A DNA stretch of 64,000 bases, taken from the NCBI RefSeq assembly GCF_988243305.1, contig NZ_OZ547136.1, one strand, 5' to 3'. This document shows, one piece after another, positions 18,001 to 27,000 of the stretch (the first letter of the stretch is position 1; each line of letters opens with the position of its first letter). Position numbers: made by a program.

Positions 18001-21000
18001 TCAGAGTAACTCCCGCCAGTTGCGAGCAAAAAAGCCGCTACGCTTTAGCTATACGTGCTAATTCAAGAGAAGAGACCATGGACAACGACAAAATTGATCA
18101 ACACAGCGACGAAATTGAAGTTGAGAGCGAAGAAAAAGAGCGCGGCAAAAAAATAGAAATAGATGAAGACCGACTCCCCTCCCGGGCGATGGCAATTCAT
18201 GAGCATATCCGCCAGGATGGTGAAAAAGAGCTGGAACGCGACGCAATGGCACTACTGTGGTCAGCCATTGCGGCGGGTCTGTCGATGGGCGCTTCATTAC
18301 TGGCAAAAGGGATATTTCATGTCGAACTGGAAGGTGTGCCGGGCAGCTTCTTGCTGGAGAATCTCGGTTATACCTTTGGTTTTATTATCGTCATTATGGC
18401 CCGCCAGCAATTATTTACCGAAAACACCGTGACTGCGGTACTACCCGTCATGCAAAAACCGACAATAAGCAACGTTGGCTTACTTATGCGGTTATGGGGC
18501 GTCGTGCTGCTGGGTAATATTCTCGGGACAGGTATTGCGGCGTGGGCATTTGAATATATGCCAATCTTCAATGAAGAAACTCGCGATGCATTTGTCAAAA
18601 TCGGCATGGATGTGATGAAGAACACCCCCAGCGAGATGTTTGCCAACGCGATCATTTCCGGCTGGCTGATCGCCACTATGGTTTGGATGTTTCCTGCAGC
18701 GGGTGCGGCAAAGATTGTGGTGATTATATTGATGACCTGGCTTATTGCCCTGGGTGACACCACTCACATCGTTGTCGGTTCTGTTGAAATCCTCTATCTG
18801 GTGTTTAACGGTACGCTGCACTGGAGCGATTTCATCTGGCCCTTCGCACTACCTACTTTAGCGGGGAACATCTGCGGCGGCACCTTTATCTTCGCGTTAA
18901 TGAGTCATGCACAGATCCGTAACGACATGAGCAACAAGCGCAAAGCAGAAGCACGCCAAAAAGCAGAACGTGCGGAAAACATTAAGAAAAATGATAAAAA
19001 CCCGGCATAAATGGCGAGGGTTTAAGCAATCGAGCGGCAGCGTACTTACCCCGCAGTCCATTAGCGGGTATACTCATGCCGCATTGTCCTCTTAGTTAAA
19101 TGGATATAACGAGCCCCTCCTAAGGGCTAATTGCAGGTTCGATTCCTGCAGGGGACACCAGATACCCTTCAAACCAAATCTACCTTCACCCCGTAAAAGA
19201 TGGGTTTGGCAGCACACTTGCCCTATATCTACTCATTTTTACTGCAACAGGTTGAAATCTCAGCACTGTCAGAAAGCGCTGATGACTAAACAGCCCTGGG
19301 CCGGGCGATGTAACCATCATACAGAATCCTGATAGCGAAATATGGCGTGACTCGATACTTCACTCTGCAATGCATTCCTTGATGAATTCGCAGGCCCGTG
19401 ATACTCGGGACAGGTCGCTGAATGACGACAATGTCCTGGAAATCAGCGAACCGCGTATCCGGAGTACATTTGAGCGACTGTACCAGAACATGAATGAGGC
19501 GTTTGGATTAGGTGATTATTAGTTGGGCTAAGCATTTTTGTATTATTATTTTCCGGTTGAGGGATATGGAGATATCGACAACAACCGGAAAAAGTTTACG
19601 TCTATATTGCTGAAGGTACAGGCGTTTCCATAACTATTTGCTCGCGTTTTTTACTCAGGAAGAAAATGCCAAATAGCAACATCAGGCAGACAATACCCGA
19701 AATTGCGAAGAAAACTGTCTGGTAGCCTGCGTGGTCAAAGAGTATCCCAGTCGGCGTTGAAAGCAGCACAATCCCAAGCGAACTGGCAATTTGAAAACCA
19801 ATCAGAAAGATCGTCGACGACAGGCGCTTATCAAAGTTTGCCACGCTGTATTTGAAGACGGATATGACACAAAGTGGAACCTCAATGGCATGTAACAGCT
19901 TCACTAATGAAATAATCCAGGGGTTAACGAACAACGCGCAGGAAAGGATACGCAACGCCATAATCACAACACCGATAAGTAATGCATTTTTTGGCCCTAC
20001 CCGATTCACAAAGAAAGGAATAATCGCCATGCACAGCGCTTCGAGTACCACCTGGAATGAGTTGAGATAACCATACAGGCGCGTTCCTACATCGTGTGAT
20101 TCGAATAAACCTGCATAAAAGACAGGAAAGAGTTGTTGATCAAAAATGTTATAGAAAGACCACGTCCCCACAATAAATATGACGAAAACCCAGAAGTTTC
20201 GATCCTTGAAAACTGCGATAAAATCCTCTTTTTTTACCCCTCCTGCATCCGCCGCTACACACTGGTGATCCTTATCTTTAAAACGCATGTTGATCATCAT
20301 AAATACAGCGCCAAATAGCGAGACCAACCAGAAGTTGATATGGGGACTGATACTAAAAAATATACCGGCAAAGAACGCGCCAATAGCATAGCCAAAAGAT
20401 CCCCAGGCGCGCGCTGTTCCATATTCGAAATGAAAATTTCGCGCCATTTTTTCGGTGAAGCTGTCAAGCAAACCGCATCCCGCCAGATACCCCAGGCCAA
20501 AAAAGAGCGCCCCCAGAATTAGACCTACAGAAAAATTGCTTTGCAGTAACGGTTCATAAACGTAAATCATAAACGGTCCGGTCAAGACCAGAATGAAACT
20601 CATACACCAGATGAGCGGTTTCTTCAGACCGAGTTTATCCTGAACGATGCCGTAGAACATCATAAATAGAATGCTGGTAAACTGGTTGACCGAATAAAGT
20701 GTACCTAATTCAGTCCCTGTTAATCCTAGATGTCCTTTCAGCCAAATAGCGTATAACGACCACCACAGCGACCAGGAAATAAAAAAGAGAAATGAGTAAC
20801 TGGATGCAAAACGATAGTACGCATTTCTGAATGGAATATTCAGTGCCATAATTACCTGCCTGTCGTTAAAAAATTCATGTCCTATTTAGAGATAAGAGCG
20901 GCCTCGCCGTTTACTTCTCACTTTCCAGTTCTTGTCGACATGGCAGCGCTGTCATTGCCCCTTTCGCTGTTACTGCAAGCGCTCCGCAACGTTGAGCGAG

Positions 21001-24000: not shown

Positions 24001-27000
24001 GTAATCATCAGGGATATAACTGGGTAACGCTGGGTCATCCGCCACACAGTTCGCCAATACAATATTTTCACCATACAGAGACTCAGGCAGCGTGATATGT
24101 CGCAGCCCCATTGTAGTATAGATAATGCCATCCGGACGGTGGGCAAGCAGCTGACGTGCCGCGCGGGCAGCGTCATCTTCAGAAAAAATATTGATTAAAA
24201 AACTATTCCAGCCGAACTCGCTGGCGGTTTGCTCAATGGCAAGCAGAATATCAACAGAGAAAGGAGTGGTAGCAGTGTCCTGCGCCAGCACGGCGAGAGT
24301 CGACGGCTTACGTCCTTGAGCGCGCATCTTACGGGCGGAAAGATCAGGAACATAATTCAGGGTCTGGATTGCCTGCAATACGCGGTCACGCGTTGCAGGA
24401 CGCACAGATTCTGCATTATGCATCACCCGGGAGACTGTCATCATCGACACTCCCGCCAGGCGTGCGACATCCTTTAATGAAGCCATACCCAAGCCGTTTG
24501 CCGTAAAACGGGCACTGTAGCAGAAACAGACGTCACTGGCGAGATCCAACGATATTCTCAACGCCCTATCACCCGATACGGCAATACAATAAAAAATAAC
24601 AATAATTCCCGGACAATTGTACCCAATTCCGCCTCTGTTCTCGCCAACGAGTAACCATGTAGGCAAGTAGGTAAAACATGCCAACTGGCATCGCCAATCT
24701 GGAGAAGAAAATATAAATATGGATCATTGTGCTGCCGCTGTATCCCGACATCAGCCCGGAAATTATTGCGATTGCTATCGGTTCAGGTGCGATTGGCTGC
24801 ACGATCGTTACGGACTCGCTTTTCTGGCTGGTGAAGCAATATTGCGGCGCTACGCTCAATGAAACATTTAAATACTATACGACCGCGACATTTATCGCTT
24901 CGGTCGTCGCTCTGGCGGGCACATTCCTGCTGTCATTTATCATCTAAGCGCAAAGAGACGTACTATGGAAAACGCTAAAATGAATTCGCTCATCGCCCAG
25001 TATCCGTTGGTAGAGGATCTGGTTGCTCTTCAAGAAACCACCTGGTTTAATCCTGGCACGACCTCATTGGCTGAAGGTTTACCTTATGTTGGCCTGACCG
25101 AACAGGATGTTCAGGACGCCCATGCGCGCTTATCCCGTTTTGCACCCTATCTGGCAAAAGCATTTCCTGAAACTGCTGCGACTGGGGGGATTATTGAATC
25201 AGAACTGGTTGCCATTCCGGCTATGCAAAAACGGCTGGAAAAGGAATATCAACAACCGATCAGCGGGCAACTGCTACTGAAAAAAGATAGCCATTTGCCC
25301 ATTTCCGGCTCCATAAAAGCACGCGGTGGGATTTATGAAGTCCTGGCACACGCAGAAAAACTGGCTCTGGAAGCGGGGTTGCTGACGCTTGAAGATGACT
25401 ACAGCAAACTGCTTTCTCCGGAGTTTAAACAGTTCTTTAGCCAATACAGCATTGCTGTGGGCTCAACCGGAAATCTGGGGTTATCAATCGGCATTATGAG
25501 CGCCCGCATTGGCTTTAAGGTGACAGTACATATGTCTGCTGATGCCCGGGCATGGAAAAAAGCGAAACTGCGCAGCCATGGCGTTACGGTCGTGGAATAT
25601 GAGCAAGATTATGGTGTTGCAGTCGAGGAAGGACGTAAAGCAGCGCAGTCTGACCCGAACTGTTTCTTTATTGATGACGAGAATTCCCGCACGTTGTTCC
25701 TTGGGTATTCCGTCGCTGGCCAGCGTCTTAAAGCGCAATTTGCCCAGCAAGGTCGTATCGTCGATGCTGATAACCCTCTGTTTGTCTATCTGCCGTGTGG
25801 TGTTGGTGGTGGTCCTGGTGGCGTCGCATTCGGACTTAAACTGGCGTTTGGCGATCATGTTCACTGCTTTTTTGCCGAACCAACGCACTCCCCTTGTATG
25901 TTGTTAGGCGTCCATACAGGATTACACGATCAGATTTCTGTTCAGGATATTGGTATCGACAACCTTACCGCAGCGGATGGCCTTGCAGTTGGTCGCGCAT
26001 CAGGCTTTGTCGGGCGGGCGATGGAGCGTCTGCTGGATGGCTTTTATACCCTTAGCGATCAAACCATGTATGACATGCTTGGCTGGCTGGCGCAGGAAGA
26101 AGGTATTCGTCTTGAACCATCGGCACTGGCGGGTATGGCCGGGCCTCAGCGCGTGTGCGCATCAGTAAGTTACCAACAGATGCACGGTTTCAGCGCAGAA
26201 CAACTGCGTAATGCCACTCATCTGGTGTGGGCGACGGGAGGTGGAATGGTGCCGGAAGAAGAGATGAATCAATATCTGGCAAAAGGCCGTTAATAACGTT
26301 TCAACGCAGCATCGCCATCCTTTCCCTGGGTGAGCGATGCTGCCGATGACGCAGACTTAAGATTCTGCCGTTTTACCTGCTATAGTCTCCTCTTTTTCCA
26401 TCACCCAACGCCTTTCGCTGTAAACGGCGGTTTCGCAAACCAAACCAAAACCGTAAGTAAGATAAAAGCAATAGCCGCCATACGGAAAATCTCATTTGCA
26501 GAAATTGAAAGTGACTGCTGAGTTATTTCATTATTAATTTCATTAAGAACCCCTGAAAGCGAACCATAGTATTTATCCATAATTTGTGACGATGAATTAA
26601 ACACGGGGTTAAATTGATCGATTGTTGCTGTCAACTGACTATGGTGTAATGATTCTCGGCGTCCCCACAGCGTCATTGTCAACGACGTACCAACTGATCC
26701 TGACAAGGTACGAAAAAAATTACTCATACTCGAGGCATTGGCAAATTTATTATCTGGCAAACCTGAAAACGAAATCGTTGTTAAGGGTAAAAAGAAACAG
26801 GCGACGGCGAATCCCTGAAAAAACTGTGGCAAAATGATGCCTGTAAAATCAATCGTTGGCATAAATGTCACAGAACGCCAGTAATAGCAAACCGCATACA
26901 TTAAAAAACTAAATGTCACCAACAACCGCATATCAATTTTGTTGCCATAACGTCCTATCAAAGGTGATATTAATAGCGGCATGATGCCGATGGGCGCATA

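Follow-up and report, generated by a model that had tools for sequence, protein, structure and literature searches.

The csc sucrose-utilisation haplotype in the argW-dsdA variable region of an Escherichia coli genome

The DNA between the tRNA gene argW and the D-serine ammonia-lyase gene dsdA is variable in E. coli, and the locus described here raises the question of what has replaced dsdC and the larger part of dsdX, how it came to be there, and what it would mean for the use of sucrose and D-serine. In the 64,000-nucleotide stretch of DNA analysed (the window), homology to K-12 detected by BLAST is limited in this region to positions 16780-19160 and 24730-29763. The 5,569-bp segment between them (19161-24729) has no K-12 homology and consists of cscB, cscK, cscA and cscR with their flanks. 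The alignment to K-12 that an earlier note on this DNA had proposed places the junctions exactly, at 19160/19161 on the left, the 3' end of argW, and at 24729/24730 on the right, inside dsdX. The order argW - CPS-53 - dsdC - dsdX - dsdA, which that note had given for K-12, is correct. The variable region between argW and dsdA very probably has the E. coli csc haplotype in this window, with the origin and working proposed below, and no feature of the sequence speaks against this explanation. The arrangement, in which csc adjoins argW and stands where dsdC and the greater part of dsdX would otherwise be, is well described, ordinary and already known. Both it and its consequences have been published, as cited in PMC4366372, PMC7486766, PMC11251922 and PMC3032704, and the argW hot spot and the substitution of csc for dsdCX are treated in PMC4366372, PMC3032704 and PMC13054288.

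All four csc ORFs are intact and full length, with no stops or frameshifts, and their family scores exceed the curated cut-offs. The cscB gene (19602-20849, minus strand) encodes a sucrose:H+ symporter of the LacY family of 415 aa, which matches the whole of the TIGR00882 profile (positions 1-396 of 396, 594.5 bits) and PF01306 (LacY_symp) with 643.9 bits. It shares 414 of its 415 residues with the O157 and GMF065 proteins, and the same number with the RefSeq 'sucrose MFS transporter'. The product of cscK (20911-21834, minus strand; 307 aa) is a fructokinase of the PfkB family, which scores 508 bits against the fructokinase model NF006957 (cut-off 450), also matches PF00294, and agrees with the GMF065 protein at 304 of 307 residues. 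The cscA gene (22050-23483, plus strand; 477 aa) encodes a GH32 sucrose hydrolase (invertase) with both Glyco_hydro_32N and 32C domains and a score of 477 bits against TIGR01322 (cut-off 356), identical at 476/477 residues to the GMF065 protein and at 472/477 to that of O157. Mechanical ORF calling starts cscA at 22041, not 22050, and the ORF lister gives cscR a longer form of 397 aa from a TTG start. As delimited here, cscR (23491-24486, minus strand) encodes the LacI-family repressor of the csc regulon, 331 aa in length, with a PF00356 LacI helix-turn-helix at residues 3-48 and a PF00532 Peripla_BP_1 domain. It is identical over 331/331 residues to WP_001344440.1, named 'sucrose operon repressor CscR' in RefSeq. 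Taken together, the Csc proteins share 98-100% of their residues with RefSeq Csc proteins and with their counterparts in the O157 strain, and CscB, CscA, CscK and CscR each have the features of the csc regulon for non-PTS chromosomal sucrose catabolism. The order and strands given in the earlier note, cscB-cscK (minus), cscA (plus) and cscR (minus), are thus borne out.

A locus of this kind, cscRAKB at argW-dsdA, is known from EC3132, W and O157:H7 EDL933 (Bockmann 1992; Jahreis 2002; Moritz and Welch 2006, as cited in PMC4366372, PMC3032704 and PMC7486766). The window has the same genes in the same order and on the same strands, with cscKB and cscA divergent and two operators, and they lie in the same place, between argW and a shortened dsdX, after which dsdA is intact. 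The csc genes differ from those of O157 only allelically, e.g. CscK has 307 aa in the window and 304 aa in O157. The scr PTS regulon (scrKYABR), which likewise confers sucrose use, also has a GH32 hydrolase and a repressor of the LacI type. It allows fast growth and works with a porin and a PTS transporter (PMC11251922), whereas the window encodes a LacY-type symporter.

The divergent cscKB and cscA units are separated by a control region (21835-22049), the sequence of which was read directly. Two identical palindromes, AGTTAACGTTAAC, are located at 21939-21952 and 22003-22016, 64 bp apart. The palindrome is found nowhere else in the 64-kb window, where 0.01 occurrences would be expected by chance, and the pair also surfaces in the repeat search as repeats D4 and I2. 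An exact CRP-like site, TGTGATATTCATCGCA, lies at 21955-21970. Two operators and cAMP-CRP sites have been reported in the cscK-cscA spacer (PMC3938415), and the GTTAACGTTAAC palindromes are putative CscR operators, assigned to these exact bases as judged from the sequence. Divergent units, two candidate operators and a CRP-like site together would correspond to the spacer layout of the csc regulon. A promoter scan of 19100-25100 gave 0 consensus sigma-70 sites, as compared with 9.1 expected in shuffles, and only weak terminator-like matches; the promoter positions therefore rest on the literature.

By analogy with near-identical loci in the literature, CscR would bind the two GTTAACGTTAAC operators and repress the divergent cscKB and cscA units. 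At high sucrose and with cAMP-CRP, CscB would import sucrose, CscA would hydrolyse it and CscK would phosphorylate the fructose, with slow growth on sucrose as the usual expected outcome. The earlier prediction of a 'sucrose-positive' strain is too simple: among isolates with csc and without scr, growth on sucrose was slow or very slow in 23 of 29, five csc+ scr- isolates whose csc genes showed no evident lesion failed to grow at all (PMC11251922), and induction of the csc regulon needs >1% sucrose (PMC3938415). Growth of the source strain on sucrose is predicted to be slow, and the phenotype is not guaranteed.

To the right of the csc segment lies a dsdX remnant (24729-24947, plus strand; K-12 homology from 24730), which comprises the last 72 codons and the stop and includes the region upstream of dsdA. 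It corresponds to positions 374-445 of 445 in the NF007395 DsdX profile, is 98.6% identical to K-12 DsdX residues 374-445, and is annotated in RefSeq as a partial pseudogene with the N-terminus missing. The remnant is separated from the dsdA ATG (24965) by exactly 17 bp, so that both its length and its distance from dsdA are as the earlier note had given them. The dsdA gene (24965-26293, plus strand) is intact and encodes full-length D-serine ammonia-lyase of 442 aa, which scores 812 bits against TIGR02035 and shares 438 of 442 residues with K-12 DsdA. A tblastn search of the whole 64-kb window with K-12 DsdC, DsdX and IntS returned the 72-codon dsdX remnant only, and blastn at word size 7 found no trace of dsdC or 5' dsdX in the window. 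Hence, of the dsdCXA system the window encodes DsdA, with neither DsdC nor full-length DsdX (445 aa), and dsdA is left, as claimed earlier, without its activator and transporter. Neither of the two observations that would have overturned the earlier note, intact dsdC or dsdX nearby and ORFs unlike csc proteins, was made in the window. When compared with the dsdCXA locus of K-12 and of UPEC CFT073, dsdA and the last 72 dsdX codons are orthologous (97.5% DNA identity) and the downstream emrY-emrK-evgAS genes are shared, whereas dsdC and dsdX codons 1-373 are absent; the DsdC-dependent dsdXA promoter is therefore lost. Intact dsdA, deprived of the DsdC activator and the dsdX promoter, would be essentially silent, and the strain would be unable to use D-serine and would be inhibited by it. 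In EHEC with the same arrangement, the lack of DsdC keeps dsdA transcriptionally silent, and D-serine is unusable as well as toxic (PMC7486766; PMC3032704). The altered D-serine handling that had been predicted is already characterised in the literature.

The expected phenotypes could differ from these in two respects. The csc genes may look intact and nevertheless be phenotypically cryptic, leaving the strain sucrose-negative in standard tests, as the five non-growing and the many slow isolates of PMC11251922 and the >1% sucrose needed for induction would allow. This is unlikely, given four uninterrupted full-length ORFs, the presence of both operator palindromes and the CRP-like site, and proteins 98-99.8% identical to those of the O157 strain; moreover, wild-type EHEC, tested separately, uses sucrose as sole carbon source (PMC7486766). 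It is far less probable still that D-serine catabolism is kept by a second complete dsdCXA elsewhere in the chromosome, which would leave the truncation without a phenotype. As its title states, Moritz and Welch 2006 (cited in PMC4366372 and PMC3032704) reports a further copy in K1 strains, some genomes have up to two places matching dsdC-dsdX, and both loci are complete in a few strains (PMC11251922). However, no such copy lies inside the 64-kb window, and the genomes with the csc junction (2,686) and those with dsdCX (2,698) sum to 5,384 of 5,426, so that overlap between the haplotypes can only be small. Use of D-serine and csc-type use of sucrose are also reported to be essentially mutually exclusive (PMC11251922, PMC13054288).

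As judged by the seven csc-type sequences examined, the window counted, dsdA remains full length in six. It is doubtful, though conceivable, that the gene is kept intact by conditional expression, through read-through from the sucrose-inducible, CscR-controlled cscA promoter that would cross the antisense cscR and the dsdX remnant. Silent dsdA is reactivated by cscR deletions via read-through from the cscA promoter (PMC7486766), and the plus strand between cscA and dsdA contains a single weak terminator-like site at 24913-24932. If this reading were true, D-serine detoxification would be coupled to the availability of sucrose. A test of selection by pN/pS, which for dsdA in csc-type lineages was 0.03-0.16, was dropped: dsdA of the csc-type strains STEC1587 and JE86-ST05 has no synonymous differences from K-12, and recombination therefore decouples the history of dsdA from the haplotype.

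The csc versus dsdCXA polymorphism separates D-serine-sensitive, sucrose-capable E. coli, typically intestinal and LEE-positive, from D-serine users, typically urinary and Crohn's-associated strains, and links have been drawn from it to niche restriction and the regulation of type III secretion (PMC4366372, PMC7486766, PMC13054288). The window assigns the strain to the csc haplotype and adds nothing new on mechanism. Its uses are in strain typing, in the curation of metabolic models (sucrose yes, probably slowly; D-serine no) and in recording a free argW attachment site.

The junctions are base-for-base identical in seven genomes, a divergent lineage included, with O157 strain 350 and five other csc-type genomes among those matching. 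The region upstream of cscR (24487-24729), which has no K-12 homology, ends at the right junction, and the 40 bp preceding that junction are kept in seven csc-type genomes. Among 5,426 complete E. coli genomes, the identical cscR/dsdX junction is present in 2,686 (about 49.5%), and dsdC with 5' dsdX in 2,698; the locus thus resembles a polymorphism of two haplotypes in a ratio of about 50:50. The earlier statement that csc replaces dsdCX is confirmed by published reports, whereas its restriction to 'some lineages' understated the frequency. Identical junctions point to a single ancestral event, which would have placed the 5.57-kb segment, with a DUF4942 relic and cscB, cscK, cscA and cscR, directly 3' of argW, and would have taken out dsdC and the first 373 dsdX codons. 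The haplotype would afterwards have been inherited vertically, and homologous recombination via the conserved flanks would have carried it from one lineage to another. The alleles of dsdA do not sort by haplotype, a sign of recombination across the locus.

The argW gene itself, encoding tRNA-Arg(CCU) (19086-19160, plus strand), was identified by ARAGORN and by Rfam (tRNA, 63.4 bits), the tRNA being the sole match in the Rfam scan, and its 3' end is both the left junction and the phage attachment core. It is followed by a 441-bp flank specific to the csc haplotype (19161-19601), which has no K-12 homologue and occurs at a coverage of at least 80% in 2,623 of the 5,426 complete genomes. The stretch right after argW is not empty, as it includes the DUF4942 relic on the plus strand (approximately 19305-19522; annotated ORF 19370-19522), recognised by a Pfam match of 58 residues (positions 5-62 of 190, E = 1.4e-9). 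A CFT073 island has full-length DUF4942 genes after its YeeU/CbtA module, and the relic matches an internal stretch of such genes with ~73% identity. In O157 strain 350, a prophage, present as a remnant carrying intS, is integrated at argW, and this 441-bp flank comes after its right attachment site, whereas the site in the window is empty and contiguous, as in 1,470 genomes. The argW attachment site in the window is the unoccupied form of the site that holds the prophage in O157; this and the DUF4942 relic go beyond the earlier note. The same tRNA 3' end is the attachment site of the cryptic prophage CPS-53 (KpLE1) in K-12, from which the window differs in having no intS, prophage genes or pawZ-like right attachment repeat.

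On a more modest reading, the DUF4942 relic and the exact tRNA 3'-end junction may be traces of a CP4-type integrative island, now decayed, that brought in csc. That the csc segment is the present cargo of a live integrative island or prophage at argW is very improbable and, as a description of the present-day state, is effectively refuted. It would fit a left junction placed exactly at the usual attachment core, a relic of a kind usual at the distal end of CP4-type islands, 144 bp past the tRNA, and the standing of argW as a known phage integration site. However, tblastn with K-12 IntS found no integrase in the 64-kb window, and searches with a 23-mer and a 15-mer, with up to 3 mismatches allowed in 15 bp, found no second copy of the argW 3' end, in agreement with the earlier claim that neither integrase nor prophage directly follows argW. 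The window thus has neither an integrase by the tRNA nor a direct repeat at a far boundary, as a prophage or island at argW would have. Likewise, no direct or inverted repeats bracket the 5.57-kb segment, the only repeats found being short chance matches and the operator pair, and the relic spans just 58 of the 190 profile positions. The G+C content of the segment (48.1%) is close to that of the whole window (48.0%) and gives no signal of foreign origin. Carriage of csc on plasmids was also considered and rejected. In the plasmid collection, the entries that match at full length measure 0.37-4.9 Mb and represent mislabelled chromosomes or very large replicons. All that true plasmids contain is a distant GH32 gene, with ~73% identity to cscA along 14% of the query.

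BLAST comparison around the locus limited homology with K-12 MG1655 to 16780-19160 and 24730-29763, and the base-level view placed the breakpoints at 19160/19161 and 24729/24730. The left breakpoint coincides with the final base of a tRNA-Arg(CCU) gene (19086-19160, + strand; ARAGORN and Rfam), which is argW, as mlaA and yfdC lie upstream of it and dsdA, emrY and emrK downstream. The 5,569 bp between the breakpoints contain four genes, cscB (19602-20849, - strand, 415 aa), cscK (20911-21834, - strand, 307 aa), cscA (22050-23483, + strand, 477 aa) and cscR (23491-24486, - strand, 331 aa), all full length and without internal stops. 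Each encoded protein shares 98-100% identity with RefSeq Csc proteins, and the family scores exceed the curated cut-off wherever a specific model exists. Beyond the right breakpoint, codons 374-445 of dsdX (24730-24947), as defined by comparison with K-12, are followed after 17 bp by a full-length dsdA (24965-26293), in which 438 of 442 residues are identical to K-12. When K-12 DsdC, DsdX and IntS were used as tblastn queries against all 64 kb, the only match was this 72-codon dsdX remnant, and K-12 dsdC and 5' dsdX DNA found no match in the window by blastn at word size 7.

The interpretation of the locus as a replacement of dsdC and most of dsdX by csc is supported by these data. The earlier note had proposed this arrangement, with no integrase after argW, and is confirmed on each point, its coordinates and counts for the dsdX remnant, the 17-bp gap and the intact dsdA being correct. 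Passages in PMC4366372, PMC7486766, PMC3032704 and PMC13054288, citing Jahreis 2002 and Moritz and Welch 2006, describe how, at the argW hot spot of EDL933, EC3132 and W, cscRAKB has replaced dsdC together with part of dsdX.

To determine frequency, a 261-bp probe spanning the cscR/dsdX junction was tested on 5,426 complete E. coli genomes. A full-length match was found in 2,686, the remaining genomes matching only from base 24730 on; 2,698 of the 5,426 carry the K-12 dsdC and 5' dsdX segment. As the two classes total 5,384 genomes, csc and dsdCX nearly partition the species. The entire 6.3-kb region is found at a coverage of at least 80% in 2,646 genomes. The csc haplotype seen here is known and very common, and nothing about it is novel. 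Apparent plasmid matches to csc are not real plasmids, and plasmid carriage was therefore rejected.

Both junctions are base-identical in six or seven sampled genomes, one of them from a divergent lineage, which argues for origin of the csc haplotype in one ancestral event. The dsdA alleles do not sort by haplotype, so the csc/dsdCX polymorphism is being shuffled by homologous recombination acting through the flanks. The dsdA genes of the csc-type strains STEC1587 and JE86-ST05 have zero synonymous differences from K-12 dsdA, which places recombination breakpoints between the csc/dsdCX segment and dsdA; the dsdA of the window differs from that of K-12 at 18 synonymous sites. The pN/pS of dsdA was set aside as a test, being confounded by recombination. 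In the csc-type strain F8111-1SC3 (locus L012, 6866-8193) dsdA is frameshifted, which could be an assembly error and not true decay, since evgS is frameshifted too. O157:H7 strain TR01 includes a 40-bp stretch (3309961-3310000, hit H90) that matches K-12 dsdX directly upstream of the junction at 100%, and these 40 bases are missing from the window and from the csc-type O157 strain 350; they may represent a variant junction or else a stray fragment.

The csc segment is not today a recognisable mobile element, because no repeats bracket it, the window has a single copy of the argW 3' end, and the G+C content is the same as that of the window. The 441-bp interval between argW and cscB is not empty. 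It carries a relic of a DUF4942 gene (19305-19522) that spans Pfam positions 5-62 (58 of 190). The relic has ~73% identity with an internal stretch of complete DUF4942 genes, which in an island of CFT073 come directly after the YeeU/CbtA module, and it may be left over from an old integrative island that used argW. Derivation of the csc segment itself from a decayed CP4-type island is a tentative and somewhat unlikely reading. O157 strain 350 has the same 441-bp flank, but there it is separated from argW by a prophage remnant with intS, a gene that the window lacks. The right-hand attachment site of this prophage, a copy of the tRNA 3' end, directly adjoins GATACCCTTCAAACC, and in the window argW adjoins this sequence in exactly the same way. 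The window therefore shows an unoccupied argW attachment site on a csc-type chromosome. The contiguous argW-flank form is present in 1,470 genomes.

The cscK-cscA spacer includes a palindrome, AGTTAACGTTAAC, in two identical copies (21939-21952 and 22003-22016) and nowhere else in the window (0.01 expected by chance), as well as an exact CRP-like site at 21955-21970. These match the bidirectional csc promoter with two CscR operators and cAMP-CRP sites described in PMC3938415, though the assignment of exact bases is putative. Induction of the csc regulon requires >1% sucrose (PMC3938415), and csc+ isolates without an scr locus show slow, very slow or no growth on sucrose (PMC11251922). Hence, 'sucrose-positive', as predicted in the earlier note, is too simple, and the strain would probably show slow, csc-type utilisation. 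The altered D-serine handling also predicted (no use, and sensitivity) is a consequence already established in the literature. The stranded dsdA is silent in EHEC and D-serine is toxic, while EHEC deletions that take out cscR reactivate dsdA by read-through from the cscA promoter (PMC7486766). Sucrose-coupled read-through expression of dsdA in csc-type strains is improbable, and neither this nor a decayed-island origin of csc would, if true, be a major surprise.

Elsewhere in the window, the yfc chaperone-usher fimbrial operon (1696-8878) diverges strongly from the K-12 allele: megablast either finds no match or gives only 77-81% identity. Its usher ORF (4924-7575, - strand, 883 aa) is intact, whereas yfcU is a pseudogene in K-12 and the usher of the closest genome, GMF065, is frameshifted; the adhesin end of the operon (2034-4131) is unlike GMF065 as well. 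In the yfdF region (15926-16030), two alignment blocks overlap in K-12 coordinates and leave a small gap in the window, which indicates that this stretch has been rearranged locally or carries an indel compared with K-12; at this position GMF065 has two hypothetical proteins annotated in place of yfdF. Between nupC and pdeA (about 60026-60037), K-12 carries IS186C and the window does not, and the latter is thus an empty-site allele. At 63621-64000, homology to K-12 and GMF065 ends right after yfeD with an IS200C-family transposase insertion at the window end. As yfeD and this insertion are contiguous in this way in only 16 of the 5,426 complete genomes, this is a rare strain marker.
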